From a virus, in the UHGV virus genome UHGV-0207328: a stretch of 48,328 nt of DNA; one strand, written 5' to 3'. Position 1 is the stretch's first letter; the number at the start of each line of letters is the position of its first letter. The notes below the pieces were generated by a model, which did no database searches, was not told where the DNA came from, and saw nothing but the letters and a program-made list of their open reading frames with translations. Position numbers and translations under genes: made by a program. Shown in pieces: positions 3,022 through 39,740 of the stretch.

Positions 3022-3414
3022 TCATCTGCACTTACTCCCGGTAACAACCCGAAACCACGGCTTTGCACTTCCATCAGGCTCTTCCACAAGGTCGCCTGTG
3101 CAGTCTGCTGTATCGAGTAGTTTCATCTGATTGTAAAGGGCCATCCACGGCTTGCTGCCATAGCCAAATGACTGTGACGCACCAGACGGCGCCCGGTGGC
3201 TGGTGATGTATCTCCCGGCCGTATTTGAGGCGATCAGGATGGATGCCCATAGCAGAATTGCATCCTGCCTGCATGTATCTTCAGGGTAATTAAGCTCAAG
3301 GCACTCTGTAATGCTCGCCACCAGGCACAGGATGCCCGTTGCGTCCGCCGTGGTGATAGTTACGCCTCTTGACGCCATGGCGGCGACAAGTTCACTTGCT
3401 GTCGGTGCTGCCAT
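3022..3414 (-). CDS. head-tail adaptor-like protein
   Basis: 130 aa from the internal ATG at 3414 with GGGAGAG RBS. The longer 153-aa frame would overlap the upstream gene by 90 nt. Confidence 0.3.
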   Translation of the reverse strand: MAAPTASELVAAMASRGVTITTADATGILCLVASITECLELNYPEDTCRQDAILLWASILIASNTAGRYITSHRAPSGASQSFGYGSKPWMALYNQMKLLDTADCTGDLVEEPDGSAKPWFRVVTGSKCR

Positions 3415-3679
3415 TCTTTTTGCTCTCCCGAATCTTCCACCACATCTCAAAAAGGTTTTTTGCCACCAGTGACAGCGCGCCAAGTATAGAGGCTACCGCT
3501 GCCCACTCGGTAATCGAATGGGGGATCATTGAGGCAATGTATGATTGTGCGACCGGCGTCTGCTCTGCCACCTTCAGGCCAAGACCTGTGCCGATGGATG
3601 TATAACCGGCTTTGTCGATTACCTGGCCGACAGTGCCACTAATTATCTGGTTTGCGGCGTGCTGAAGCGCGTCTCTCAT
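3392..3679 (-). CDS. hypothetical structural protein, C-terminal hydrophobic segment
   Basis: 95 aa. First gene of the leftward block after the convergent terminator region. Confidence 0.3.
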   Translation of the reverse strand: MRDALQHAANQIISGTVGQVIDKAGYTSIGTGLGLKVAEQTPVAQSYIASMIPHSITEWAAVASILGALSLVAKNLFEMWWKIRESKKNGSTDSK

Positions 3680-3840
3680 TAATTATTCTCCGAATGATGA
3701 ACTTCCAGCATCTGTACACCTGAACCAGCGAAAACGCTATGACGATAACGCCGATTGCTATATCCAATTTCGCCGCCTTACGTTTTTCAGGACGGAACAG
3801 CGCGGGGTGAGTGTTGTTGGTTTAATTTTATCATAAAGTG

Positions 3841-3869
3841 TTGACGTAGATTGAGGGTGCTGCTATAGT
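3841..3869 (+). promoter_or_regulatory. sigma70-like promoter TTGACG-N17-TATAGT carrying the conserved TTGACGTAGATT 12-mer
   Basis: -35 3841-3846, -10 3864-3869. A second GACGTAGAA copy lies at 3874. Confidence 0.55.
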
Positions 3870-3908
3870 GATGACGTAGAAACAACAATAAATGTTAGAG
3901 GTGATGAG

Positions 3909-4109
3909 ATGAGTAATATGAGTTATTGCAGATTTCGTAACACGTTGCATGATTTCGATGACTGCGTTGATGCTGTAGGTAATGCTGAATCAATTAATGA
4001 CTTCAGTAAGCCAGAGCGAGAGGCTGCTGAGCGCATGTATGAACTGGCCATAAACTATGTAGAGTGGTTTGAACAGTTAAAAATTGAAAATGGTGATGAA
4101 GATGAATGA
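3909..4109 (+). CDS. hypothetical protein (66 aa)
   Basis: ORF following the promoter. Acidic C-terminus. Confidence 0.45.
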   Translation: MSNMSYCRFRNTLHDFDDCVDAVGNAESINDFSKPEREAAERMYELAINYVEWFEQLKIENGDEDE

Positions 4110-4386
4110 ATTCAAAGGTACGCCGGGGCCGTGGTCAGTTAATGAGATAGGCCAGCACTGGAATAACAAATCACTAACTCACCTGGAAATTACTTTTGGT
4201 GAGGATGGTGAATGCATTTGCGACACTGTTTATCAGCGCGAAGATGCCAATCTCATCGCCGCTGCGCCTGAACTGCTGGAAGCTCTGGAGATGCTTGTAG
4301 TCTTCACCACTCCAACAAAAAGGAATGCCGCTGCCTTGAGCAAGGCTCATGCCGCCATTACCAAAGCACTCGGAGAATCCAAATGA
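4084..4386 (+). CDS. hypothetical protein (about 95-100 aa)
   Basis: ORF overlapping the upstream stop. Start ambiguous (4084 or 4096). Confidence 0.45.
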   Translation: MKMVMKMNEFKGTPGPWSVNEIGQHWNNKSLTHLEITFGEDGECICDTVYQREDANLIAAAPELLEALEMLVVFTTPTKRNAAALSKAHAAITKALGESK

Positions 4387-4502
4387 TTCGCCACGAAATC
4401 CGCAAAGAAGACCAGAAGGGATGGCTCAAGTTCAAGATTCAACTGGCGGTTATCGTTATTAGTGTTGCTGTTATTAGTTTTTATTGCTTATCTAAGTGAG
4501 GA
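4383..4502 (+). CDS. 39-aa single-TM peptide
   Basis: ATGA overlap with the upstream stop. LAVIVISVAVISFY hydrophobic core. Confidence 0.3.
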
Positions 4503-4506
4503 AAAG

Positions 4507-5322
4507 ATGACATCTCTCGGGAAAATTTACTCAGACAAAGAAACTCGCGGCGGAATCGTGGTCAACAAAGGTTATCAGGTTCCTGTCGACCAGCTTTATC
4601 TTGAGCCGGGATACAACATCCGCGAAGCAGATGAGCAGCACGTTGAATATTTCGCGCAGTGCTGGGAATCAGGCCAGCCAATCCCGGCGTTAACTGTTAT
4701 TCCTGATGCTGACGGAAAGCGCATCAAGATTCTTGACGGCCAGCATCGTTATCTTGGCGCACTGCGTGCCATTGAGCGCGGCGTGCCAATTGCGCGCATT
4801 GAGTGCAAAGACTTCACCGGCGATGAGGCGGATAAAATCGCCTTCATGGTGTCATCCAGTCAGGGTAAGCAACTCGACCCGCTTGAGCGCGCAAAGGCTT
4901 ATGTGCGCCTGAAAGGGTTCGGATGGACGAATGAAGAAATCGCCAAGAAGGTCGGCCGCTCTGTTTCTGATGTGCAGATGCACCTGTCACTTGGTGATGT
5001 ACCTGACGCTATCAAGCAGCGTATCAATGCAGGCCAAATCAGTTATGCCAACGCCGTTGCAGTGGCGCGTGAGCATGGCGATGATGCCGTTAACGTTATT
5101 GATGCTGCCGTTGAGGAAGCGAAAGCGCAGGGCAAGGATAAGGTGACGGCGAAAACGCTCAAGGCCAAAAAAGTTAAGCCGATTGACCGCCTGATTCAGT
5201 TACTGAAAGAAGCAGATCATATAGTTGTCGCTGAGGGCCATGTGGCACAGGAGACAGAAGAATTTTTGCGCCTTCCCTCTGCTGAACTGAATGAAGTGCT
5301 GGCGATTCTGGAGAAGTTGTGA
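4507..5322 (+). CDS. ParB-like nuclease superfamily protein with DGQHR motif (DndB-like / ParB N-terminal domain)
   Basis: 271 aa from ATG 4507 (GAGGAAAAG RBS). Motif ILDGQHRYLGALRAIERG, with a C-terminal helical Lys/Ala-rich region. Confidence 0.6.
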   Translation: MTSLGKIYSDKETRGGIVVNKGYQVPVDQLYLEPGYNIREADEQHVEYFAQCWESGQPIPALTVIPDADGKRIKILDGQHRYLGALRAIERGVPIARIECKDFTGDEADKIAFMVSSSQGKQLDPLERAKAYVRLKGFGWTNEEIAKKVGRSVSDVQMHLSLGDVPDAIKQRINAGQISYANAVAVAREHGDDAVNVIDAAVEEAKAQGKDKVTAKTLKAKKVKPIDRLIQLLKEADHIVVAEGHVAQETEEFLRLPSAELNEVLAILEKL

Positions 5323-5516
5323 TGATTACAATTGGCACTGTTGCAAAAAACATAAAAGAAGGCGATCACATCCTAATGCGAGACGGCGTGGCTCGCCAGG
5401 TGGAGAAAATTCACTATCAGGAGGACATAATCGCATTTGAAATGAAGCGTTACGAAGAAAAAACAAGGCATTTCTTATTTTATGATGAATGCGCAAACGT
5501 GGTGGATAGTTGGTAA
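5319..5516 (+). CDS. hypothetical protein (65 aa)
   Basis: ATGA-coupled to the ParB-like gene. Confidence 0.4.
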   Translation: MMITIGTVAKNIKEGDHILMRDGVARQVEKIHYQEDIIAFEMKRYEEKTRHFLFYDECANVVDSW

Positions 5517-5689
5517 TGAACCCCGAACAATTCATGGAGAAAAACCTGCGCGAAAAACTGCCAGGCATCGACAACGCGGCCATAGAGGCCGCAATTACCC
5601 ACTACAGGCGCAACCAGAGTGAAAAGAAGGGCAAGACTTTCGATGAATGCCTGAAGGTTGCAAAACAACACATGGTGAAGGTGAAGTGA
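5516..5689 (+). CDS. hypothetical protein (57 aa)
   Basis: TAATG coupling upstream, TGATG coupling downstream. Confidence 0.3.
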   Translation: MNPEQFMEKNLREKLPGIDNAAIEAAITHYRRNQSEKKGKTFDECLKVAKQHMVKVK

Positions 5690-6225
5690 TGAAATTAAAA
5701 GTTAGCAAGTTGCTCATTGAAGGTGCTTTGATATTTCAGGCCAAACAGGATGTGCGTTACTACCTGAATGGCATTTGCTTTATGCCTGATGGTCGCGTTG
5801 CCGCTACTGACGGTCATCGCGCCATGATTGCCAGTAAGCACGAAAACAAGATAAAAAGTAACGTCATCGTGTCGATAAGCAAGTCGCCGACAAAAAATTA
5901 CTCTTATGCAGTGATTGATACCAGGGCAAAGATCGTCACTTATCATAACAATTTTGATGTGCTGGTTGGCGCAGGTATTTGCTCTGAGGTTGATGGCAAG
6001 TTCCCTGATATTGATCGCATCATCCCCAATCAAACCGCGCCAGCAGAACAGATTGGCTTTAATGCCAAATATCTGGCAGATGTTGAGAAGCTGGCGAAGC
6101 TGTTTAACCCGAAATATGAAGGCGTGCGCTTTGAACTGAACGGCAACATCAACGCCGCTGTCGCAAACATCAGTGCGCCAACTGGCGAGACTGCCAAAGT
6201 TATTGTTATGCCAATGAGGATTTAG
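5689..6225 (+). CDS. truncated DNA polymerase III beta sliding-clamp (DnaN) homolog, 178 aa
   Basis: Blocks QDVRYYLNGICF, ATDGHRA, VDGKFPD, IGFNAKYLADV and C-terminal VIVMPMRI match E. coli DnaN domain II/III blocks QDVRYYLNGMLF, ATDGHRL, VDGRFPDY, IGFNVSYVLDV, VVMPMRL. RBS GAAGGTGAAG. Confidence 0.6.
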   Translation: MKLKVSKLLIEGALIFQAKQDVRYYLNGICFMPDGRVAATDGHRAMIASKHENKIKSNVIVSISKSPTKNYSYAVIDTRAKIVTYHNNFDVLVGAGICSEVDGKFPDIDRIIPNQTAPAEQIGFNAKYLADVEKLAKLFNPKYEGVRFELNGNINAAVANISAPTGETAKVIVMPMRI

Positions 6226-6479
6226 TGATGAAAAAGAATGGCGTTTTTACTCAGAAGGACGACTCAAAAGTTGCCAGTCTTGGCGATGGTTACGTTGGCA
6301 TTAAATTTGGCTCTTGCCATGGTGAAAAGTTAATAGCTATTGCGAATAGCATAAATCGAGGGGTGCCTGGCGATGAAGTTGATGATATTGATGAGGCGGA
6401 AATTTATATCACATTCAAAGACAACGCCTCAATTCAGCGGCTGATTGATGGCCTCGTCAATCTCCGCGACCATAAGTAA
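6225..6479 (+). CDS. hypothetical protein (84 aa)
   Basis: ATGA-coupled last gene of the cassette. Confidence 0.45.
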   Translation: MMKKNGVFTQKDDSKVASLGDGYVGIKFGSCHGEKLIAIANSINRGVPGDEVDDIDEAEIYITFKDNASIQRLIDGLVNLRDHK

Positions 6480-6482
6480 ACA

Positions 6483-6509
6483 AAGCCCCGAAAGGGGCTT
6501 TTCTTTTAT
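6483..6509. terminator. bidirectional terminator AAAGCCCC-GAAA-GGGGCTTT + T-run between convergent genes
   Basis: perfect 8-bp stem, TTCTTTT after it. Confidence 0.6.
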
Positions 6510-7327
6510 CAAGGCAGATAAGCATCATCCTCAAACCATGAAACATAAGCATTGATATTTTGAGCCGCAGTATCCAGGGATGTGATGCGTAACAGGTAGG
6601 TAGTATTAGGCGCCATGATGACCTGTTCACCGAGCTTTGCCTGCGAATTACCCTGCCCCTGATTAGATGCGTTTCCTTCACTATACGTCGCCGCCATCGT
6701 CAGCTGCCCAATACTTGTCACAGTAGAGCCGGTAAGAAGCTGTGCTGTTGCAGTATGCGGTGCAATATCATTTGGGTTATTAATCTCCGCAGCGGTGCCG
6801 CCAGTGGCTACAGCTCCACGGTAAATTGACGCTATGACACCTTTACCGGTGTATCCGATTATGCGCTGGTTAAACACAACCTGTTTTGAGCCGGTAATAA
6901 AAATGCTGTCAAGGTTAGCCCCGCCAGCGACATCAGTCACGCGACGCGATGCGGTGAATAGCTTTCCCTGCTTGTTGGCAAGCTCGGCATAGGACTGAGC
7001 GACAACCTGACTTGATGGCACTGAGGTGTCAGCTCGCCACACCAGGACTTTCAGGGATGCCACGCCAGCAGGAAGTTGTGACTTAATCACTTTCAGTCGC
7101 AGCGCGATGCCATAATAATTATTATTGTTAACGTCAATCCAGAAGTCACCAGATGCAAACGGCGATACCATTACGGAAACAGAGCCGCTTGTTAATGGTG
7201 CATGACCGCCGGAAGAGTTTAATGGCACAATCTGCACCTGCAATGCAGTCCAGTCTGCTGACATAGTTTCGCCAAGCAAAACCTCTCCGTCAGCCGGAGT
7301 TGTGTTTATTTCGTACCTGACAGCCAT
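6509..7327 (-). CDS. putative virion structural protein (272 aa)
   Basis: ATG 7327 with GGGGG RBS. Gly/Ser/Thr/Asn-rich beta-type composition. Located between the MCP and connector genes. Confidence 0.45.
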   Translation of the reverse strand: MAVRYEINTTPADGEVLLGETMSADWTALQVQIVPLNSSGGHAPLTSGSVSVMVSPFASGDFWIDVNNNNYYGIALRLKVIKSQLPAGVASLKVLVWRADTSVPSSQVVAQSYAELANKQGKLFTASRRVTDVAGGANLDSIFITGSKQVVFNQRIIGYTGKGVIASIYRGAVATGGTAAEINNPNDIAPHTATAQLLTGSTVTSIGQLTMAATYSEGNASNQGQGNSQAKLGEQVIMAPNTTYLLRITSLDTAAQNINAYVSWFEDDAYLP

Positions 7328-7340
7328 GATAACCCCCAAT

Positions 7341-7372
7341 AAAAAAACCCGCTTGTTTGCGGGTTTATTTTA
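7341..7372. terminator. hairpin AAACCCGC-TTGTT-GCGGGTTT flanked by A- and T-runs (bidirectional)
   Basis: 8-bp stem with poly-A upstream and poly-T downstream. Confidence 0.5.
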
Positions 7373-7564
7373 CTTGGTTTTCTTCGCCTTTGGCTGCGAT
7401 TCTTGCGGAGTTGCAACTTCCAGAATTTTCTCACTAACCGGGCGAAGTTTTGACTCAATGTGCGGAGTCGATTCTTCAATGATATCGCCAATAGCAAGTT
7501 CACGGAGGCGACCGTCTTTATCCTTGATGAAGATTCCGCTGGCGATTACTTCGTATTTAGCCAT
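7370..7564 (-). CDS. hypothetical protein (64 aa)
   Basis: AGAGG RBS. Lies between two terminator hairpins after the MCP gene. Confidence 0.4.
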   Translation of the reverse strand: MAKYEVIASGIFIKDKDGRLRELAIGDIIEESTPHIESKLRPVSEKILEVATPQESQPKAKKTK

Positions 7565-7580
7565 GATAACCTCTGATAGT

Positions 7581-7610
7581 TAAAAGGGGCTATTCGCCCC
7601 TTTATTTTTA
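7581..7610. terminator. terminator hairpin AAAGGGGC-TATT-CGCCCCTTT immediately after the major capsid gene
   Basis: GC stem with T-run on the minus strand. Confidence 0.55.
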
Positions 7611-8696
7611 CAGCGCGGTTTGCGTGCCGTATGCGTTAAACACCTTGCTTCGGCCCGAGAAATCCCGGCGAATTTGCAAACCCATAGCAGCCCACGTTAA
7701 AAAGTTAAAGTTAGCGTGCGGCGTGGTACGCGGCTCTGCATAGGTGGATACCGGCTGAGCGACGCGAGGGCGAATATACAGTGCATTCTTCACATAGCCG
7801 ACGAAATGGTTACCGGTCAGCTTGAAGTTGGTGCCGATAGACGCGATGCGGCCAACGTTGCCGGTTTTGCCGAATGCGAGGATATAATCCTCAATGGTGC
7901 CGCCTTTGAAGCCTGCCGCGTTGGAGTACGGGCGGCTGAAGGAACGGCGCACAGACGGAGAAACCCACAGAGTAACCGGCTCGAACACGTTTTGCGCATC
8001 GAGAACCGCCTGGAAATCCTGGTTGAAGAACTCAACGATTTCATCAGGGGTTGCAGTTTGCAGGTCGATATTCAGCGCGCCAGTACCAGAGGTACTCAGG
8101 TTGAGCTGCACGGTGTTCGGGTGGTTGGTGATGCCGTAAGCAGTATAAACGCCATTCACGTTCAGGCTTGCATCGCCGACAAGCAGATAATCCGCCATGT
8201 CTGCGCGCAGGTTGAAGGTGGTGCTTTCCTGGTCATCAATCAGCGGGTCGAAACCTTCAGATTGCATACCCATCAGCTCACGCCACTCACGGCCATAACC
8301 GGTTTTGAAGATCGGGATTACATCGCCGCTGTAGGAGTAGCGGGTTTTATCCAGGTCTTCAGGCTCCTGACCGGAGATGGTGCGTACAACCTTGCCAGCA
8401 TCGGAGGCCATGCGGCTAATTGCCACGGTCTTACCGATATTGATGTTGGTCGCCAGCGTCATCAGGTCGGCCATCATGTCCATGCCGGACTCGTTGCGGA
8501 ATACACGGGTGGTCACGTCGTCCACTTCGCGCCAGTAGTCTTTCGTTACCAGGGCGGTGGCGTTTACGCCGTATTCTTTCGCCAGAGCGTTTTCACCATT
8601 GATGAAAACCTTGCGGTCAACGGTCAGATGGCGCCATTGCTCTTTAACCACCTGCGAGTTGGTGATCAGGCCTTTCGTAAAGATAATCTTTTCCAT
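7608..8696 (-). CDS. major capsid protein
   Basis: 362 aa. Follows protease/scaffold and decoration genes, and is followed by a strong terminator. Confidence 0.75.
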   Translation of the reverse strand: MEKIIFTKGLITNSQVVKEQWRHLTVDRKVFINGENALAKEYGVNATALVTKDYWREVDDVTTRVFRNESGMDMMADLMTLATNINIGKTVAISRMASDAGKVVRTISGQEPEDLDKTRYSYSGDVIPIFKTGYGREWRELMGMQSEGFDPLIDDQESTTFNLRADMADYLLVGDASLNVNGVYTAYGITNHPNTVQLNLSTSGTGALNIDLQTATPDEIVEFFNQDFQAVLDAQNVFEPVTLWVSPSVRRSFSRPYSNAAGFKGGTIEDYILAFGKTGNVGRIASIGTNFKLTGNHFVGYVKNALYIRPRVAQPVSTYAEPRTTPHANFNFLTWAAMGLQIRRDFSGRSKVFNAYGTQTAL

Positions 8697-8707
8697 TGTT
8701 CGGCTCC

Positions 8708-9172
8708 TTACGCCGCAGGCATTGCAGCATTGCCAGCACGACGAACTGCAACGAGTTCAGCGCCATCAGATGCTACGGTGTAGGCTTCATACGCATAAAA
8801 CAGGATGTTTTCACCTGCTTCTGCAACCTTTAACGCGCCGGAGCCATTGCTTGCCAGCGGAGTACCTTTTACCAGCGCGGAGGATGCCGCAACCAGAGCG
8901 TGATACGTTACGCCAAATTCGCACTGTACTGCCATGCCGGTAGCATTCGCCGGTACAGCTTCGCTCACGTCGCCGCCGCCAACATAGTTGTGTTGCAGAA
9001 CGTAGGGGAAACCCTGACCGCCAGCAGTCGCATGCGCGATGATTTTGTCAGAGGAGTTGAAGTCGACCAGTGCGCCAGGTTGCAGAGCAACGTTCATCAG
9101 ACCTTCGCGCAACTGCGGGTCGTTTTTGCGGGCCGGGCCGCCGATGATGGTGCCATAACGGATAGTAGCCAT
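8708..9172 (-). CDS. head decoration / DUF2190-like structural protein
   Basis: 154 aa, Ala/Gly-rich. Lies between scaffold/protease and MCP, with ATGA overlap to the protease gene. Confidence 0.5.
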
Positions 9173-10572
9173 TATTCAGGTGCCTCCATATCAAAATCTT
9201 CTTCGGCACGGTTCGGCTGGAACCCGCCGGAAATCGGAGCCGCTTTACTGGTGAGCGCATAGGTTTCACGCAGTGCTTCGCCAGTCAGCGCATTAACAGC
9301 AGATTCCGGCAACTTCAGCTCAGCCATAATGGCGGCGCGCATTGCGGTTTCTTCCTGTGCGGCATTGGCTTGCAGCTGGTCGCGCAGGGTTTTGTTTTGC
9401 GCCTCCACATCGGCCAGTTTCTGGTTGACTGCGGTCAACGATTCCTGAACCGGCTTGAGGGCATCGGCTAATACAGCCTGTAATTCCTCGTTAGTCATTG
9501 AGATTTCCCCTTGAGTTGTTTTTACCGGTTCAAGCTCTGTCTTATAAACAGCCTTAACCCGTTCACCGACTAATTCTACCATATCCTCACGGACGATGTA
9601 GGACTGCATATAAATGGTGCCGTCAATCTCAACGCCGAAGTAATTATCATAAACGGCGACGATATAGGGCCATACATCAGACTGAGTCTCGGCCTTAATG
9701 ATATTGCGGAGCTGCTCGGTAATATCGGTGAATGACAGTTGATTGCCTGTCAGGCGATTGATGGCGCGCTGCCACCATTTGATTTTGTTTGCACTTTCGT
9801 CGGTCATTGCCGATTCCTCAAGATTAACCACAATGCGCTCAATGTCTTCGCCGTTAGCAGCAAAGATACCGACACCATCAGCAGGGCCGCCAGCACCAGG
9901 AATACCAGGCGGAAGAATGGCGAGGTGATCCCACTCCATATTCCGGGCAATCCAGGAATATTTTTTACCCTTAGAAGTTCCTGATGCCTGCTCGCGGTTG
10001 AGCAGCAGTCCCGTGGACACTTGCACAGGTTCAGCATCGGCGCTGTTGGCCTTGAGTCCGTCAATACGCGACAGCAACTCCCTGCCTTTATCAGATCGCT
10101 CAGCTACCACCTTGTTAATATAAAGGTCTACCAGTGCCTTGCTGCCGTCATGAGATGAGTTCTCAATCCATGCACCAACGCTGAACTGATTAGCGGCCCG
10201 CGTCATGTTGGCTGACACATATTTGCCATCAATCTTCGGGTGGTCATATGGCGCCGGTTTCCCGTCAAGACCATGGAATGACTTTTTAATCTCATCACCA
10301 GGGTACAGGCCGCCATTCATGACAATGTCATCTACCACCGGCACAACATTCTTGATGACATAGTGCGGGTCGCCATCAATGATTTTTTCACTGATGTTGC
10401 TGGCTGAGTTGATGGTGTACAGGATGTTAACCTGTAATTTATTATTCATGTGCTTGAATGCCTCCACCTCAGCAAGGCGCTTTTTCGCCGCCTCTTCGGT
10501 GTCGTACTCGCCAAACTGGTGCGAGCCATCCTTAGATTTAACGACCCACTTGTCGCCAATTTTGACAATCAT
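9172..10572 (-). CDS. prohead protease / scaffold fusion protein (DUF2213-like)
   Basis: 466 aa. N-terminal [39 protein letters not shown] signature, C-terminal coiled-coil Ala/Gln/Glu-rich scaffold-like region. GGAGAAAGG RBS. Confidence 0.6.
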
Positions 10573-10711
10573 GACCTTTCTCCGCGCTTACTTTATTCCC
10601 GGATTATAACACACCATGAATATGCACCACGAAACGGACGCGAGAAGGTAAAGCGGAGACGCGGTAAAAGCGAAAAGAGTAGCAAAGAATGATATCAGTA
10701 TGATTGGCATG

Positions 10712-10745
10712 GCTGCTACCTCCTGAATGCAAGGTAGCAGCCAAT
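10712..10745. other. 11-bp-stem hairpin GCTGCTACCTT-N9-AAGGTAGCAGC without a U-tract
   Basis: perfect inverted repeat in the 180-nt gap upstream of the protease/scaffold gene. Confidence 0.3.
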
Positions 10746-10754
10746 GATGACGAT

Positions 10755-11099
10755 TTATTGAGGACTATTCTTATTTAACATTCCGCAGTTAATTTTTGCG
10801 CGGTTTACTGCATCCATGAATTTCCCGACAGGCATCGTTTTGCGGATTTCAGCCAGAATGGCGCCGTGTAACATTCTTTCTTCACCGTAGTAGAGCTTAT
10901 CAAGGCGAGTGCGAACCAGTGCGCGCGTGCGCTTCATGTGGTCACGCGCCTTCATGGCCTTCTCTTTCCATACTCTGCCTGCATCCTGATTTCCAGCAAG
11001 CTGACGCTCGATAGCCTCAATCTCAAAGGCAAGCGTCATATCAATGTCATCCAGTTCGCTGATTGTTGCTTCCATGATTTCGTTAAGTTGTAGTTTCAT
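10755..11099 (-). CDS. hypothetical protein (114 aa)
   Basis: ORF in a tightly packed leftward small-gene array. Confidence 0.45.
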   Translation of the reverse strand: MKLQLNEIMEATISELDDIDMTLAFEIEAIERQLAGNQDAGRVWKEKAMKARDHMKRTRALVRTRLDKLYYGEERMLHGAILAEIRKTMPVGKFMDAVNRAKINCGMLNKNSPQ

Positions 11100-11369
11100 T
11101 TATTCACCTTTTATTTTCAGACCTGAGGCGCGGATGGACTTTGCGCATTCTGCGACAGTGTTTTTATGCAGATCACAAAACATTTTCGCTGCGCTCGGAC
11201 CGAGTGGGTGCACTTCTATTGCTGTTGGCAACTCAATCTCAATCGCCGCGCGCGATGCTCGCCACGCCAGAGCCGTATAAACCTCTAATTCATCTCTCTC
11301 CTCATCTGAATAATAGGGCCTGTCAAAATTCTCACTAAACCACTTTTCAAACTGCTCTCTACTTGTCAT
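11100..11369 (-). CDS. hypothetical protein (89 aa)
   Basis: ORF contiguous with its neighbours. Confidence 0.45.
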   Translation of the reverse strand: MTSREQFEKWFSENFDRPYYSDEERDELEVYTALAWRASRAAIEIELPTAIEVHPLGPSAAKMFCDLHKNTVAECAKSIRASGLKIKGE

Positions 11370-11641
11370 TTCTCCTCCTCATCAAAATACTTAATCTCGC
11401 CATCAACCATGTTTTGCCATGGGATATGCAAATCAGTTCCATCAACTGACAGCATGATGCTGTTATCCATCTCCGTGCATCCATCAGCGAAGAAGGTGCT
11501 TTTCTTTCCGTTTAGCCACTCAATTGTTACTCTGCATTTTCTTTGTTCCACTATCCACCCCATCTCTCTGCGATTATTGGCCGTGCGTTCACAATTGGTC
11601 ACAAACAGCACGGTTCCTGATTTATGCTTTACCGCCCACAT
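11366..11641 (-). CDS. hypothetical protein (91 aa)
   Basis: ATGA-coupled ORF. Confidence 0.45.
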   Translation of the reverse strand: MWAVKHKSGTVLFVTNCERTANNRREMGWIVEQRKCRVTIEWLNGKKSTFFADGCTEMDNSIMLSVDGTDLHIPWQNMVDGEIKYFDEEEK

Positions 11642-12099
11642 GACTGGCGCGCCCCGGCAAGCAGCTTTTCAAACATCATCCTGTCACGGCTCATGCCAAA
11701 TGGGATGATCTCCTGCCAGTAATATTTCCATGCTCCACCTGGGAGCATTTTGCGATCAACCTGACCAATGCTTGCCAGATAGCGCATGCGTGCCTTGAGG
11801 ATGGTGTAGTTGACGCCGACAGCTTCTGCTATCTGCTTGCTCTTGCGTCCCGGATTCGCCTCAAGATATGTCTGAATTGCCAGGTCAAGCGCAGTATTAT
11901 CGGGATTGAGGAAATACTTAAAGCAGCGCCTGCCATAGCTGACGCTTTCCTCTTTAATAATAAATCCCATACCCTCCAGCTCAATCAGATAGCCGGTAAC
12001 GCTTGCTCGATTTGTCATGCCAGTCTGCTTGCGTATCATGGCATTGGTTGCACCTCCGCAGCGCTCTATCACCGTGAGTATTTGCGTTTTAAAGTCCAT
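11629..12099 (-). CDS. putative DNA-binding protein with two winged-helix-like segments
   Basis: 156 aa from ATG 12099 (GGAG RBS, 7 nt after the Lar gene stop). Segments IERCGGATNAMIRKQTGMT..GYLIELEGMGFI and KSKQIAEAVGVNYTILKARMRYL. Confidence 0.35.
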   Translation of the reverse strand: MDFKTQILTVIERCGGATNAMIRKQTGMTNRASVTGYLIELEGMGFIIKEESVSYGRRCFKYFLNPDNTALDLAIQTYLEANPGRKSKQIAEAVGVNYTILKARMRYLASIGQVDRKMLPGGAWKYYWQEIIPFGMSRDRMMFEKLLAGARQSCGR

Positions 12100-28309: not shown

Positions 28310-28525
28310 ATGTACAGACCTGGCAGCGATTTGGCTCACGTTTACCATCACGTATCTGGCATTAATGTCAATGAAGTTAAGCTCTTGCCGTCAAGCGAGA
28401 TAGTTGGCATGGACATAGCAAGATTCAGGATGAACCTTTCCAAAGTTTCAAAGGATGCTGGCATGATGTTCATCACACGTTTTGACAACCATAAAGAAAT
28501 CCTCACCATCAGAAGGATCTCATGA
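28310..28525 (+). CDS. hypothetical protein (71 aa), first rightward early gene
   Basis: consensus RBS AAGGAGG. Confidence 0.55.
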   Translation: MYRPGSDLAHVYHHVSGINVNEVKLLPSSEIVGMDIARFRMNLSKVSKDAGMMFITRFDNHKEILTIRRIS

Positions 28526-30012
28526 TGGCAATAAAGACCATTTACGACCTTACAGCAGACATCAAAAAAGATTCCTGGTACGACATCACCAAGCCGCCAG
28601 GCCTTGCCGGCGAGATAGCTGAAGATATCGCCGCTGGTGAAGTGCGAGAACAGCCAAGATTGCGTGCTGTGGCAGCACTGCATGAGCTGGTCATTGCCAG
28701 CAAAGGTAAAATTAAAACTCCAAGCGGCATGAAAGGAAACTTGCTGACCATCTGCATTGCTGATTCCGCCGGTGGTAAAGACCGTTCTCAAAGTCATTTC
28801 AAGATGATCGCCCGCGATATCGACAAAGGTCAGCACGTTTTTGGCCGCATAGCATCATCAAAAGATATCGGGCGCACACTGATAAACCACGAAGGCGTGG
28901 CAACATTTATTATTGATGAATGCCATGGTCTTTTTGGCGTGATGTCACAAAAGAATGGCGCCACCTATATGGCAGAGCTTGGCTCTGAAATTCTCTCAAT
29001 CTATTCAGACCGCCTGAAAAAATTCTCTGACCTTGATGCCATTAATGCGAAGGAGTTGCTGGAGAAGGAGTTAAAAAAACTGCGCGCAGAAGTTAAGGAT
29101 AAGGGCATTGTTGAAACTGAGTATCGTCGACGTGAAATGCAGCTCGAAAAAGAAATCTTATGGCCTATCCAGAACGGGATAGAAGACCCTATATTTTCAA
29201 TGATGTGCTTCTCAACGCCTGAAAAGCTGGCAAGCATCATCTGCTCTGAAAACATTGGCACCGGCCTTATTGGTCGTGCGATATTCATCAAAGGAAAAGA
29301 TGGCCGAGCAAGGAAAGCAAAAAGATTCGGTCACAAGACGCCGCCATCGCTTATCGAGAAGATGAAACAGATAGAGAAATCAGCACCAACCGTGGCGAGG
29401 TACGAAGATACAATGGTTGAGCAACTTGCTGAATCTCTTGATGATCGTTTTGAGGAGTTGCGGAATGATGTTGCGCTAGGAGCTGTAATATCACGTTCAT
29501 TTGAGCAAGTGGAAAAGGTTGCAACAGCTCTTTCAGCTGGCAATAAAGGAGTCATTACAGAAGCTATGCTGATGTGGGCTTTTTGCTTTGTATGCGAAAG
29601 CCTTACTGACGTGATGAGCATGCTTAAAGTGAATGAGAGCCAGGAGGAACTTGGCACTATGGCGCGATGGAACGAGATTAAAAACCGCATTGAAAACGTG
29701 CTATCTGGTAGAACACGCGATGATTCAATGCCTCAGTCAAGCATTATTCAGCGCGTAGTTAAAACCAAGTCGCTAAAAGGACTGGCAGAAGCTATTGCTC
29801 GTACCAATGGAGAGGATTTTAATTTCGGCGCAAAAACACTTATCACGCCAGTAATGCAGGCATTAATGGAGTCAAGAGCTATTGATGCTGTCGGTTGCGG
29901 TTACTGGATTAACGACGCGAGCAAGTTTGAGTCGACAAAAATGAGCATTAAATTTTCTCAGATTGTTGAGGGTATCGGAATGAATATGGCGGCGCAGAGA
30001 GGGTGGAGATGA
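28522..30012 (+). CDS. large early protein of unknown function with degenerate P-loop-like and DE motifs (putative ATPase/replication-associated)
   Basis: 496 aa. ICIADSAGGKD and FIIDECHG segments. ATGA-coupled to the upstream gene. No confident family assignment. Confidence 0.45.
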   Translation: MMAIKTIYDLTADIKKDSWYDITKPPGLAGEIAEDIAAGEVREQPRLRAVAALHELVIASKGKIKTPSGMKGNLLTICIADSAGGKDRSQSHFKMIARDIDKGQHVFGRIASSKDIGRTLINHEGVATFIIDECHGLFGVMSQKNGATYMAELGSEILSIYSDRLKKFSDLDAINAKELLEKELKKLRAEVKDKGIVETEYRRREMQLEKEILWPIQNGIEDPIFSMMCFSTPEKLASIICSENIGTGLIGRAIFIKGKDGRARKAKRFGHKTPPSLIEKMKQIEKSAPTVARYEDTMVEQLAESLDDRFEELRNDVALGAVISRSFEQVEKVATALSAGNKGVITEAMLMWAFCFVCESLTDVMSMLKVNESQEELGTMARWNEIKNRIENVLSGRTRDDSMPQSSIIQRVVKTKSLKGLAEAIARTNGEDFNFGAKTLITPVMQALMESRAIDAVGCGYWINDASKFESTKMSIKFSQIVEGIGMNMAAQRGWR

Positions 30013-30287: not shown

Positions 30288-30321
30288 CAAAAAACCCTCC
30301 ATCAGGAGGGTTTGTTTTTTA
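30288..30321. terminator. bidirectional terminator AAACCCTCC-ATCA-GGAGGGTTT + T8
   Basis: 9-bp stem. The primase stop codon lies in the loop. Confidence 0.6.
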
Positions 30322-31195
30322 GTGCTTCAAATAGTTCTTCTGGTTTATGCAGCCTTTTTCTGATGGCGCCGCTGTAACGGATATCCTGCCCGTCATCAGT
30401 AATCAGTATCGTAAGACCTGCATTCTCGGCGGCGCATACCTCATCGAAATTATTATTAATGATGCAACGCAGTTTAGCTCGCTGTTCATCGCTCACATCA
30501 CGCACAACTTCCCACATATTTTCCGACGACCAGCAACACCATACGTGAGCACCGGTAAGCCGATGCGCGCGCCATGCGTCAAAGTAATTGGACACAAGGT
30601 ATGTCCATTCTGTCTTATCTCCAATTGGTGTAACGGCGCCGCGCGTAAGTCTTCCGCGAGTGTACTCATGGCTAAAACCCGCGCGAAATGACACGCTTTC
30701 ATCGTCTGCCAGAAAAGCCACATTGCATGGCGTCATGGTTCCAGCCATATAGAGCGGTATCGCCACCAGTTCACCGGTTTTGCCGGTTATGGTGTCGCCG
30801 CCTGCTTTTTCCATGATGGCCGCCACTTCTGCCTCTGTCAGATAGTCAGAAGCATGGTTGACCTTCGGAAGCTGCTTTCTAATTGCCTCAAGTTTTTCGC
30901 GTGGGTGCATGTTAAGAAATCCGGCCAGTGCCTCCATTGACTCTGGAAACGTCATTCCTGACAGCTTCATTAGCCAGGTGATTCCGCTGCCGTTTCCGCA
31001 CTGGTTGCAGATGGCGCCGCCGTCACCTTTTGTTTCGAAGTTGTTATCCCACCTAAACCTGTCCTTACCCATGCAATGAGGGCATGGCTGATGCTTTCCA
31101 TTAAAAACATTCCTGTCAATATTCACTATTGAGAGTAGAGCAGCCTCCCAGTTACCTACCATTAAAGGCTCTATGTCCTTCCAGTCGTATCGCAT
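30302..31195 (-). CDS. DNA primase (N-terminal zinc ribbon + TOPRIM domain)
   Basis: 297 aa. CPHCMGKDRF..CNQCG zinc-binding motif, TOPRIM-like E..(acidic)..ILITDDGQD block. Leftward gene embedded in the rightward early operon. Confidence 0.65.
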   Translation of the reverse strand: MRYDWKDIEPLMVGNWEAALLSIVNIDRNVFNGKHQPCPHCMGKDRFRWDNNFETKGDGGAICNQCGNGSGITWLMKLSGMTFPESMEALAGFLNMHPREKLEAIRKQLPKVNHASDYLTEAEVAAIMEKAGGDTITGKTGELVAIPLYMAGTMTPCNVAFLADDESVSFRAGFSHEYTRGRLTRGAVTPIGDKTEWTYLVSNYFDAWRAHRLTGAHVWCCWSSENMWEVVRDVSDEQRAKLRCIINNNFDEVCAAENAGLTILITDDGQDIRYSGAIRKRLHKPEELFEALKNKPS

Positions 31196-31269: not shown

Positions 31270-33204
31270 GTGCAAAAAATTGATGCAATGATTGCTGAGC
31301 TGGATATGGATAAGCTGCGGGCCAGCATCCATACCGGGGAAATTGAACCGCGACCCTATCAGTGGCTGGTATATGAAAAGACAGCGGAGGTTATCCGCAA
31401 GTTTGGTAAGCAGCCAAAGCCAAGTTATGTTACCGCGTCGGTTGGCGCCGGTAAGACCATCATGATAGCCATGATTGCCCGTCGGTTTCAGGATATGGGG
31501 TGGGAGGGGCTTGTCATCGCGCGACAAGGAGAAATTATTGAGCAGGATGCAGAGGAACTCTGGAATCTGAGCGTAAAAAACTCTCTGTTTAGCGCGTCCC
31601 TTGGGCGAAAGGCGTATGCCTATCCGCTTATCGCGGGAACGGAGGGCACAATAATAAATGGCCTTTTTGATAAGACAGCCGATGATGGCACCGTGACGAA
31701 ATCACTGTTATCAGACTTTTCCCCGCGCTACATCCTTGTCGACGAATGTCACCAGGTTAACTGGCAGGACATAATATCAGAGCAACCAGAGACGCAGTAC
31801 GGTGTCATCATGAATGAACTTAACCGGCGCTGTAAAGCGAAGTATGGGCATGAGGTGATTGTCATTGGCTACACCGGCAGCCCATTTCGCGGAGTTGAGT
31901 CGATAAAAGGGGCTTACTGGAAACACGAAATCGTTAACATCAGCACAAAATACCTTGTTGATTTAGGGTTTCTGGTTCCGACTATCTTCGGGGGGCAGGA
32001 TATCGAAGACCTGCAATACGATCTGCATGAGTTTGCCAGTAGTGATGTTGACGGCGTACAGGACTTTACTGATAGCCAGCTAAAAGAGATGCAGGAAGAA
32101 ATCCTTAAGCAGGGCACATTGACACAAAAAATCATGCTAAAAGTCATGGAGCTTACGCGCGACAGGCTCGGTGTACTCATTACCTGCGCAGGTAAAAAAC
32201 ATTGCAAGGAGGCTGCAAAATACTTACCAGAAGGCAGTTATTCCATTGTTACCGAGGATATGGGGCAGAAAGCCAGACGGAAAGCGCTGAAAGATGCGGC
32301 CACCGGGCGCAAAAAATACACGCTGCAAATCGGCTGCCTCACTACTGGCGTCAACATCCCATATTGGGATACTTCTGTCATCCTGAGAAAAATTATGTCC
32401 CTGACGCTTCTGACGCAGTTGCTTGGCCGACCAATGCGCCTGTTGAAGCCTGAGCAGATTGCCGCAGGTCTGGTGAAAGAAAACCATCTTTGCCTTGACT
32501 TCACCGGAACCATGTTCGAGCTTGGCGGTCTGTACGAAGACCCTATCCTTGAGGAAGCAGAAGCACAGCGCGCCAAGCGTAGCGGAGAGCAGGTTCCATG
32601 CCCTAAATGCCAGACGATGAACAGCCCATATGCACGGCGTTGCATCGGTAAAGACTCAACGTCTCCAGATGGACGATGCGAAGAGTTTTTCAGCTTCATT
32701 CGCTGTGGTTTCGACAAGCACGGCATACGTATTTTTGATGATGGTTGCGGCACAAAAAACGACCCGACAGCTCGTTATTGCCGTCAATGCGATCACGTTT
32801 TGCGCGACCCTAACGCGGCGCTTAATGAGCGAGCCTACACGGATAAAGAATGGACAGATGTGCAAGATTTTAAAGTCGAGTTGACTAAAGACGCTGAGGG
32901 GGTTCTTTATCGTTACCTGGTGGTAAAAGCTGATGGCAAGACCGGCTGGGCAAATGAGGTGTTTTATCCTTTCGGAGGCAAGCCAAAGCACCTCCGTGAC
33001 ATGTTTAAAATGAAGGCTCTGCTTCCGCACCTGGAAGATAAATCAATGATGAAGAAAATGATGGACTGCCATGATGCGAAGACTTTCATGCATTACGCCG
33101 GTTTAATCCGCGCACCTAAACGCATCACGCATCGCTTTAACGATAAAGGACGCGATATCATCCACCGCAAGGATTTCATAGGAGAACAAATTGAAGCAGC
33201 TTGA
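31270..33204 (+). CDS. SF2 DEAD/DEAH-box DNA helicase with C-terminal zinc-ribbon pair
   Basis: 644 aa. RPYQ (Q-motif region), Walker A SVGAGKT, motif II VDECHQ, C-terminal CPKCQ..C and CRQCDHV ribbons. GTG start. Confidence 0.7.
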   Translation: MQKIDAMIAELDMDKLRASIHTGEIEPRPYQWLVYEKTAEVIRKFGKQPKPSYVTASVGAGKTIMIAMIARRFQDMGWEGLVIARQGEIIEQDAEELWNLSVKNSLFSASLGRKAYAYPLIAGTEGTIINGLFDKTADDGTVTKSLLSDFSPRYILVDECHQVNWQDIISEQPETQYGVIMNELNRRCKAKYGHEVIVIGYTGSPFRGVESIKGAYWKHEIVNISTKYLVDLGFLVPTIFGGQDIEDLQYDLHEFASSDVDGVQDFTDSQLKEMQEEILKQGTLTQKIMLKVMELTRDRLGVLITCAGKKHCKEAAKYLPEGSYSIVTEDMGQKARRKALKDAATGRKKYTLQIGCLTTGVNIPYWDTSVILRKIMSLTLLTQLLGRPMRLLKPEQIAAGLVKENHLCLDFTGTMFELGGLYEDPILEEAEAQRAKRSGEQVPCPKCQTMNSPYARRCIGKDSTSPDGRCEEFFSFIRCGFDKHGIRIFDDGCGTKNDPTARYCRQCDHVLRDPNAALNERAYTDKEWTDVQDFKVELTKDAEGVLYRYLVVKADGKTGWANEVFYPFGGKPKHLRDMFKMKALLPHLEDKSMMKKMMDCHDAKTFMHYAGLIRAPKRITHRFNDKGRDIIHRKDFIGEQIEAA

Positions 33205-38240: not shown

Positions 38241-39740
38241 CTACTGTAAATTTAAAGAACGTTCAGCCATTCTCTGGCGGGAGTTCAAGTATACCGCTTT
38301 AACCTGATCGACGGTAAGCGCGGAGTCGAAATAAATAAACTCAGCAATGTCAAGATGTTTTGTTTTAAACATTGCTGAATCACAGTATCCATTACCAACT
38401 GCAATATTGCGACCAGAAAGAATGATGCGATCTGAGTCTGCTTCTCTCAATCTATTATAGTTATCACCGCCAACGGACATAATCTTATACCTTTGCCCTG
38501 AACCTGTAACGCGCACAGTGTGAGAAATGAATAACCACTTACCAACAGGACTTAACCCGGCTGGATATTGACGAGATGTAGCACGATACCCAGCTATGTA
38601 CGACCGTATCCAGCGCCGTGTTGTTCTGTCAGAAAAAAGAGATAACTGAACTCCGTTATATGTGAAATCATCATCTCTCTGACTATAACCATTTGCTGTG
38701 CCGTAAATAACAACAGCGTCAGTTTCAGGGGATTGCTCCGGGATTCTGACAACAGAACAAACTGTGTATTCAGCTGAGTCTGGGATATCAGAAATTAAAG
38801 CACCTCCCCATGCCGCCACGCTAATGAAGTTTTTATTAAAAACTGGTGTGGCCTGCGGTGTTAATACTTTAGAACCGACACGACTATTATAACTGGTATC
38901 TTCATAGCCAAATAACCAATGACCAACTGCCGTCGCTTCTAAAACAGACGGTGTAGGCTCGACGCTACCAGCACCGCCATTATCCTTTCCCAGGTATACA
39001 GTGCCATCATCCTGAACGCCAGAGATAACCCACCCCAGAGGGGTCATTGTGACAGATTGCCATCCAGGTGGCGTTTCTGTTATTAATCCTCCACCAGCAA
39101 TGAGGTTCCCACTCTTGTCGTATAGCGCAAGCTTAAACCCATCACCATTGTCAAGTTCGAGAAGGTTTTCTTCACTTAGAGCCAGTCCAAAGTTCTTCAC
39201 TTTTATTGCCTCATCGCTCACTTCACCAACCTCAAAGCCACCAGATGTAATTAGTGAAAGTTTGTTTTCTTCAGCCTTTACTATTAATTCACTTCTATTC
39301 CTGACCTCATCAGAAGTCAAAGCAATGGAATCATCTACAGCTTGCTGGGATGGCATCTTACGACCAGTAGCCTCAAGAGTGCCACCATTGTTGATGTATT
39401 CATCTGCAAGTGAGCTGCCGTCAGGGCTGCGGACGTAAGTTGTGCTGCCATTTGGAATATTGGCTATGTCAGCCTGAGCATCAGCAAGAGTCATATACTG
39501 ACGACTTAGCGGTATTAAATTCTCTACTAAATTATTATATTCGCTCTGTTGTTCTGAAAGCTGAGCGTTAAATGCATTGTTTCTTCCGGTATTCGTCAGC
39601 CGCTGCACGCCGAATCGGTCAGTGTAGTAATCAGAACTTCCGTTAACCTCTTCATCAATCTTACCGGCGTTAAACTTCAGGTCGCGCGGGTCTTCAGAAG
39701 GAATTGGCTTGTTAGTTGGGGTAGTAGCCATCGGCTGCAA
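38241..39740 (-). CDS. tail fibre protein with C-terminal lectin/LamG-like domain
   Basis: 499 aa. Position after the tip protein. C-terminal ..NGYCDSAMFKTKHLDIAEFIYFDSALTVDQVKAVY.. jelly-roll-like signature. Confidence 0.5.
   Translation of the reverse strand: MQPMATTPTNKPIPSEDPRDLKFNAGKIDEEVNGSSDYYTDRFGVQRLTNTGRNNAFNAQLSEQQSEYNNLVENLIPLSRQYMTLADAQADIANIPNGSTTYVRSPDGSSLADEYINNGGTLEATGRKMPSQQAVDDSIALTSDEVRNRSELIVKAEENKLSLITSGGFEVGEVSDEAIKVKNFGLALSEENLLELDNGDGFKLALYDKSGNLIAGGGLITETPPGWQSVTMTPLGWVISGVQDDGTVYLGKDNGGAGSVEPTPSVLEATAVGHWLFGYEDTSYNSRVGSKVLTPQATPVFNKNFISVAAWGGALISDIPDSAEYTVCSVVRIPEQSPETDAVVIYGTANGYSQRDDDFTYNGVQLSLFSDRTTRRWIRSYIAGYRATSRQYPAGLSPVGKWLFISHTVRVTGSGQRYKIMSVGGDNYNRLREADSDRIILSGRNIAVGNGYCDSAMFKTKHLDIAEFIYFDSALTVDQVKAVYLNSRQRMAERSLNLQ

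Follow-up and report, generated by a model that had tools for sequence, protein, structure and literature searches.

The window, that is, the whole 48,328-nucleotide stretch of DNA analysed here, is a 48-kb siphovirus genome sharing ~94% identity with Flyfo siphovirus Tbat1_6 and ~92% with Klebsiella phages 6991 and ZCKP8. An accessory island on the positive strand, convergent with the head genes on the negative strand, contains small ORFs, a ParB/KorB-like gene, a member of phrog_4439, a gene encoding a 178-aa short DnaN-like protein (referred to here as the mini-clamp) and an 84-aa ORF. The features of the island, of the mini-clamp gene and of the replication module are as follows:

3841..3869, positive strand: sigma-70-like promoter candidate, TTGACG-17-TATAGT with an extended -10 TG (10/12 matches; consensus match only)
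3909..6479, positive strand: accessory island with the mini-clamp gene (ORF map and annotation)
4462..5322, positive strand: ParB/KorB-like gene (HTH_ParB 5e-11, KorB 2.6e-6, phrog_1033 2.5e-87)
5510..5689, positive strand: phrog_4439 gene, 59-aa product, immediately upstream of the mini-clamp gene
5678..5683, positive strand: Shine-Dalgarno-like AAGGTG, 5 nt before the mini-clamp ATG (read from the sequence)
5689..6225, stop included, positive strand: mini-clamp gene, 178-aa short DnaN-like protein (homology, AlphaFold model, dN/dS)
5689..5988, positive strand: domain II-like part, aa 1-100, equivalent to E. coli beta ~130-236 (alignment and secondary structure of the model)
5989..6042, positive strand: inter-domain linker, aa 101-118, VDGKFPDIDRIIP..., equivalent to E. 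coli 237-254 (alignment)
6043..6222, positive strand: beta-alpha-beta-beta-beta unit, aa 119-178, the domain II-facing half of domain III, E. coli ~314-366
6225..6479, positive strand: 84-aa ORF downstream of the mini-clamp gene
6482..6501, unstranded: bidirectional hairpin resembling an intrinsic terminator, AAAGCCCC-GAAA-GGGGCTTT, separating the island from the head genes
28522..30012, positive strand; 30302..31195, negative strand; 31270..33204, positive strand: replication module ORFs (two primase parts; SF2/ResIII helicase with zinc ribbons)

The mini-clamp has a computed mass of 19.6 kDa, and its start codon at 5689 shares the sequence TGATG with the stop codon of the upstream 59-aa ORF. 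Many databases use an alternative start, the ATG at 5647, giving a 192-aa protein; this form would run into the upstream gene, which belongs to a real family (phrog_4439), and was rejected. The 178-aa form is the better call because distant homologues all start at its MK(I/L)K(V/I). A split clamp completed by a neighbouring ORF was also considered and rejected, the 59-aa and 84-aa products having no DnaN-related Pfam match and the gene being solitary in other genera. The ParB/KorB-like gene sits in a lytic-looking siphovirus and is without a link to the mini-clamp in other genera. Strong hairpins are located at 6482..6501, 7345..7366 and 7583..7603, at the boundary between the island and the head genes, two of them resembling bidirectional terminators, and 13 terminator-like sites were observed in the region 3300-7700 against 4.9 expected.

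The replication genes of the window encode SSB, ERF, a DUF3799 exonuclease, a ResIII/SF2 helicase and primase pieces. Two genes, one on each strand, make up the primase: one supplies a Zn-ribbon/toprim part and the other a 496-aa "DNA primase" part (phrog_33132). No DNA polymerase gene was found in the 48-kb window genome, and the phage must therefore recruit the host Pol III.

Similarity to the Bacterial Sliding Clamp

The initial annotation, made from the sequence alone, had described the product as a DnaN homologue carrying five DnaN blocks in order. All five are present in the translation: KQDVRYYLNGICF at aa 19-31, ATDGHR at 39-44, VDGKFPD at 101-107, IGFNAKYLADV at 122-132 and VIVMPMRI at 171-178. 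The homology itself is confirmed by profile searches. A phmmer search of all PDB sequences matched E. coli-type beta clamps with E = 1.3e-15 to 5e-15, aligning query residues 6-160 with beta 135-295 and, in addition, residues 119-178 with beta 314-366; overall identity to E. coli beta is ~36%. The TIGR00663 dnaN profile matched with E = 9e-11 and 41.3 bits, short of its cut-off of 137.65 bits. In Pfam, DNA_pol3_beta_2 (E 1.2e-4, query 7-107) and DNA_pol3_beta_3 (E 0.0098, query 114-177, profile 65-121 of 121) were matched below their gathering scores, and no match to the DnaN N-terminal domain was returned.

Structure prediction from the single sequence gave a pLDDT of 35, and the model used instead was built on a 105-sequence alignment, yielding a monomer with a pLDDT of 97.0 and a pTM of 0.90. 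Foldseek searches with this model matched clamps with E ~1e-8 over ~255 alignment columns, which we read as an alignment that begins in domain II, reaches the C-terminus and contains a large gap. The beta-alpha-beta-beta-beta repeats of the clamp fold are present in the mini-clamp, and structure searches returned clamps only. No solved structure of a member of the short family was present among the PDB sequence and structure search matches.

Domain Anatomy and Proposed Origin

The protein had been expected to correspond to domain II plus the C-terminal part of domain III, with domain I and much of domain III missing, and phmmer, the alignment and the structure search agree on this division, the loss from domain III amounting to about half. 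Two segments of the pocket, KQDVRYYLNG (aa 19-28) and ATDGHRA (aa 39-45), belong to the domain II-like part. In the model, the second channel-lining helix of domain II (E. coli ~196-208) is replaced by coil with a family-conserved Pro67, followed by a strand; the model contains two long helices only, at 7-16 and 126-139. The linker has the consensus VDGKFPDxxRxxP and includes the pocket residues P106, R110 and I111, P106 being invariant in 105/105 family sequences. The remaining unit, aa 119-178, contributes pocket residues N125, Y128, I172, M174, P175, M176 and R177 and ends one residue past MPMR, the same C-terminus as in DnaN.

Both ends of the aa 119-178 unit match the second repeat of domain III, the start through IGFNxxYLxDV (E. 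coli 317-327) and the end through VVMPMRL, and its helix-to-strand loop, LFNPKYEGVRF, resembles LSNEKFRGVRL of the first repeat. Because of this mixture of second-repeat ends and a first-repeat-like loop, two competing alignments are obtained with HMMER and MAFFT. The simplest account of the origin of the protein would combine the loss of domain I with the deletion of exactly one repeat unit (~E. coli 256-317), running from the first strand of one domain III repeat to the paralogous first strand of the other. The resulting size, 366 - 122 - 61 = 183 aa, is near the observed 178. The mini-clamp thus comprises 1.5 of the three domains expected of a ~366-aa DnaN equivalog (TIGR00663), and it lacks the two complete clamp domains per protomer found in trimeric rings (PCNA, T4 gp45, E. 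coli beta*).

Partner Pocket and Dimer Interface

In E. coli beta, the peptide-binding pocket consists of subsite I (R152, L155, T172, G174, H175, R176, L177, P242, R246, V247, V360 and M362) and subsite II (H175, N320, Y323, V344, M362, P363, M364 and R365) (PMC11139829). Retention of the protein-binding cleft had been proposed, and all of these residues map to segments kept in the mini-clamp, with 14 of the 18 positions of the predicted peptide pocket identical to E. coli and three conservatively changed. Both subsites of the DnaN pocket for clamp-binding motifs are therefore present at the sequence level.

Conservation was assessed across 105 diverse family members with a mean column identity of 19%. 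The near-invariant columns are D21, R23, Y25, L26, G28, T40, G42, H43, P106, Y128, M174 and P175, equivalent in the same order to E. coli D150, R152, Y154, L155, G157, T172, G174, H175, P242, Y323, M362 and P363. Mean column entropy is 1.21 bits in the 18 pocket columns versus 2.73 bits elsewhere (permutation p < 1e-5), and pocket residues account for ten of the 15 most conserved columns, with four of the other five directly adjoining them in sequence. This conservation could be partly structural inheritance, since the pocket residues are the signature motifs of all DnaN proteins.

The initial annotation had also supposed that part of the dimer interface is retained, a claim that is not supported, as the interface residues all lie in missing segments. 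On the domain I side, K74, I78, R96, R103, R105 and F106 are gone, and the missing first half of domain III has taken I272, L273 and E298-E304 with it, leaving the mini-clamp without the ring-closing head-to-tail interface of DnaN; in the alternative HMMER alignment, I272 corresponds to K137, and most family members have Lys there. Conservation across the 105 members is among the lowest in aa 82-100, whose strands would be exposed as free edges of the sheets. With neither side of the interface present and one channel-lining helix lost, the mini-clamp most likely does not encircle DNA. The standout feature of the family is that it keeps the whole predicted partner pocket and discards everything needed for a ring.

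The family also differs from E. coli beta in charge, being neutral to basic whereas E. coli beta is acidic: the computed pI is 9.3 for the mini-clamp, with a family median of 8.4, while E. coli beta comes to 5.25 and the fragment of beta equivalent to the mini-clamp to 5.96. Lys19, Lys134 and Lys137, conserved in the 105-member alignment, sit where real clamps face DNA. Lys19 corresponds to E. coli H148 in the DNA-contacting loop beside Q149, and Lys134 and Lys137 lie on the exposed side of the one helix left from domain III.

Family Distribution and Genomic Settings

The short clamp forms a uniform, large family rather than a truncation accident. A HMMER scan returned 2388 matches among 1.84 billion representatives clustered at 50% identity; nearly all of the best 150 of these matches are 165-220 aa long, and the first full-length DnaN (373 aa, E 6.5e-12) appears near the end of those 150. 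The family comprises more than 130 clusters at 50% identity and spans many phage genera infecting Salmonella, E. coli and Klebsiella. By tblastn, the gene was found in 239 phage records with identities from 96% to 24%, 237 of which match over at least 80% of the query. Both boundaries are shared, with the N-terminus located ~20 aa ahead of DVRYYLNG and 82% of members stopping at most 3 aa from MPxR, 59% exactly one residue after it like DnaN; the mini-clamp has the length and both boundaries of the short phage "beta clamp domain-containing protein" family (165-220 aa). Many phage proteins of 163-250 aa in BFVD share the mini-clamp fold with TM 0.83-0.90. A fold match too weak to be relied upon (E 1.4e-6, TM 0.40) was also obtained to BFVD A0A6J7W9M3_1, a 1394-aa phage protein annotated with a large polyvalent protein-associated domain; if the match is real, a clamp-like module in an early-injected polyvalent protein would fit host manipulation.

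Comparison with the homologue in the closest relative, Flyfo siphovirus Tbat1_6, gives a dN/dS of 0.12, indicating purifying selection. Of the two findings named as able to overturn the original reading, neither was obtained: the DnaN similarity is significant, and no full-length dnaN with this gene as its frameshifted remnant was seen in relatives, whose annotated homologues are similarly short. No family among the PADLOC defence models matched the mini-clamp at E <= 1.

The setting of the gene was compared at 12 hand-inspected loci. A solitary gene on the strand opposite to head or tail genes is found in Kagunavirus fFiEco03, Jersey-like SE1, Dhillonvirus SO-1, Gorganvirus RS10pmA and Shewanella phage 1/41; the SO-1 homologue was deposited as a "possible moron gene product", and a bidirectional terminator hairpin follows the homologue in SO-1 and fFiEco03, the two loci scanned for it. 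Sortsnevirus IME279 has the homologue next to genes for Dam, primase and helicase, in two Vibrio phages it is on the same strand as neighbours that look like tail genes, and in one of two distant representatives, on a short contig, it adjoins YopX, HTH_39 and NinB genes. In temperate prophages of E. coli, Klebsiella and Salmonella the homologue is located in the early-left operon, flanked by a cI/LexA-like repressor on one side and xis/int on the other, with ORF6N/Rha, SPFH and Ea22-like genes as neighbours; the short clamp gene is present in 61 of 5426 complete E. coli genomes.

At the three prophage loci inspected, including the E. coli N39 prophage (3250..11847), a gene for an ORF6N/Rha-type regulator always precedes the short clamp, and two of the three have an SPFH-domain gene upstream of it and a 74-aa ORF after it. 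Prophages with the short clamp carry a DEAD/DEAH helicase and toprim replication module, like the window phage.

The gene occurs in phages with their own PolA (fFiEco03; PMC9825357) as well as in polymerase-less phages such as that of the window, and the mini-clamp is therefore not tied to a phage polymerase. Overall, the gene has the profile of an accessory function that is probably early and acts on the host, and not that of a core replisome component.

The existence of the gene is not new, because databases already recognise its similarity to DnaN. Existing labels include "DNA polymerase III beta subunit", "beta clamp domain-containing protein" (PGAP, in E. coli prophages) and "possible moron", and one genome paper calls the short clamp simply a sliding clamp (PMC9825357). 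Literature searches found genome-paper annotations only, and no functional, experimental or structural study of the short family.

Comparison with Known Clamp-Like Proteins

DnaN of the P0A988 type (PF02767/PF02768; TIGR00663) has three domains, a dimer interface and an acidic character, whereas the mini-clamp has 1.5 domains, no interface and a basic character. The closest parallel in E. coli is beta*, also a shorter clamp without domain I in which the pocket is kept; it is said to have been described by Skaliter, Paz-Elizur and Livneh in 1996 as a UV-inducible internal-start product of dnaN consisting of domains II and III. However, beta* has two complete domains and reportedly acts as a ring-forming clamp, whereas the mini-clamp additionally lacks half of domain III and one helix and belongs to a separate, long-diverged family. 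The herpesvirus factors UL42, UL44, BMRF1 and PF-8 are non-ring proteins of the clamp fold with two full domains that bind their own viral polymerase; they have no detectable sequence relationship to the mini-clamp and are an analogy only, the mini-clamp having kept the pocket for bacterial partners. Phage proteins acting on the same clamp-partner hub include Twort Gp168 and Mu MuC. Both of these bind the clamp, whereas the mini-clamp imitates the binding site of the clamp and would act on its partners.

Possible Role of the Mini-Clamp

The clamp cleft docks QLxLF and QLxLxF motifs of Pol III alpha, epsilon, delta, Pol II/IV/V, MutS/L, Hda and others. The mini-clamp may represent a stand-alone "pocket module", consisting of domain II and the half of domain III packed against it, which would be the smallest contiguous piece of beta with the whole hydrophobic cleft. 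It would be expressed from its own signals, within the early-left operon in temperate relatives and as an opposite-strand insert in lytic relatives. By binding clamp motifs off the ring, it would titrate at least one host clamp partner or re-route it to phage DNA. We consider this reading, the best supported of those compared here, about evenly balanced between right and wrong; the homology, fold, family size, conservation pattern, purifying selection and gene context behind it are shown, whereas peptide binding, a monomeric form, which partner is bound and whether that partner is inhibited or recruited are what we infer under it. A strong general decoy for alpha or delta would harm the window phage, since it needs the host Pol III, and a DNA-bound role fits better than a soluble decoy because the family is basic and keeps Lys19, Lys134 and Lys137 at DNA-facing positions. 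An obvious phage-encoded partner was sought and rejected, no terminal clamp-binding motif being found among all window ORFs or the fFiEco03 replication proteins. One internal QLSLF, a perfect consensus pentapeptide, occurs at aa 365-369 of a 499-aa ORF in the tail region (38241..39740, negative strand) and is probably due to chance.

The initial annotation had suggested a clamp mimic. That the protein competes for or redirects clamp partners, including delta, stays plausible, whereas heterodimerisation with the host ring, or its poisoning, is without a basis in the sequence because the interface residues are all missing, and a blanket shut-off of host Pol III would be awkward for a phage with no DNA polymerase of its own. 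The poisoning reading, in which the fragment heterodimerises with host beta or enters the opened ring and thereby poisons the clamp or traps the loader to turn host replication off, draws on phages known to target the clamp, as seen in the Twort Gp168-beta complex (PDB 7evp) and in phage Mu, whose MuC uses the clamp (PMC12867686). Delta binds monomeric beta ~50-fold tighter than the dimer and also contacts a five-residue loop of beta (PMC11139829). Given this preference for monomeric beta, a monomeric pocket could trap the loader. The contacted loop, which we take to be residues 274-278, is however in the deleted half under the preferred alignment, both halves of the interface are missing, I272 is replaced by a conserved Lys in the alternative alignment, and the window phage relies on host Pol III and clamp loading; together these make poisoning of host beta very improbable. 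Hardly any credence can be given to a RusA-like Holliday junction resolvase or to a functionless, decaying dnaN remnant. The resolvase label is attached to phrog_3007, which matches the mini-clamp with E 1.8e-56 over residues 1-178, and to many RefSeq records, however the fold is the clamp fold, Pfam at E <= 10 gives the two DnaN domains only with no match to RusA (PF05866), and structure searches give clamps only. As profile and fold searches show clamp similarity only, the label looks like an error propagated through RefSeq and PHROGs; both NC_071143.1 gp74 and phrog_3007 are named "RusA-like Holliday junction resolvase", and the original GenBank entries read "DNA polymerase III beta subunit" or "hypothetical". 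A decaying remnant is at odds with the dN/dS value and with boundaries conserved over more than 130 clusters.

Two further readings give the mini-clamp a positive role on DNA. It is possible, though we think it rather unlikely, that the protein is a loader-independent DNA tether like herpesvirus UL42, with its basic surface on DNA and its pocket holding a host polymerase or ligase; Pol III core, Pol I, Pol II/IV or ligase are candidates, and the protein would then be a positive replication or repair factor and no decoy. It could act, for example, at ERF/exonuclease/SSB recombination intermediates or at forks driven by the phage helicase-primase. The basic pI relative to E. coli beta and its equivalent fragment, the three conserved lysines, the location beside primase and helicase genes in IME279, and a window phage that lacks a DNA polymerase and encodes its own helicase, primase, ERF, exonuclease and SSB are all consistent with a tether, as is the DEAD/DEAH helicase and toprim module used by the prophages bearing the gene. 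However, the gene usually lies outside the replication module in a moron-like position, it is also found in phages with their own PolA, whose termini show no clamp-binding motif, and one channel-lining helix is gone. A true sliding clamp assembled from more subunits is improbable. In such an assembly, four protomers of three units each would form a 12-unit ring of D2 symmetry with pockets on both faces, the half-domains pairing into a pseudo-domain and the domain II sheets pairing two-fold at their edges. The proposal is one of geometry only, 178 aa being exactly 1.5 domains and clamp domains having an internal pseudo-two-fold symmetry; the conserved lysines would face the channel, and as a precedent the two-domain, internal-start beta* of E. 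coli was reportedly found by Skaliter and colleagues in 1996 to have clamp activity as a probable trimer. Against this, the second domain II helix is replaced by coil and strand, such that the ring would have 8 helices and not 12, conservation is poor in the strands expected at the sheet edges (aa 82-100), the monomer is predicted with very high confidence as a compact fold, and there is no phage clamp loader, while the host loader would face a different symmetry. We likewise doubt that the 1.5-domain protomers self-assemble into a new kind of D2 clamp, possibly loaded without the host loader, or, failing a ring, into a C-shaped dimer on phage DNA that recruits host clamp partners.

Significance

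The pocket of the beta clamp is the hub that coordinates all bacterial polymerases, mismatch repair, Hda and the clamp loader, and is an antibiotic target. If the off-ring pocket module does bind clamp motifs, it would act as a naturally occurring competitor or adaptor with a free pocket, mirroring the known phage proteins whose target is the clamp itself, and would offer a ready-made minimal scaffold for studies of binding to the pocket. As a decoy, it would reveal which clamp partner merits neutralising during infection. As an adaptor, it could account for the capture of host Pol III by phages that encode a helicase-primase and no polymerase.
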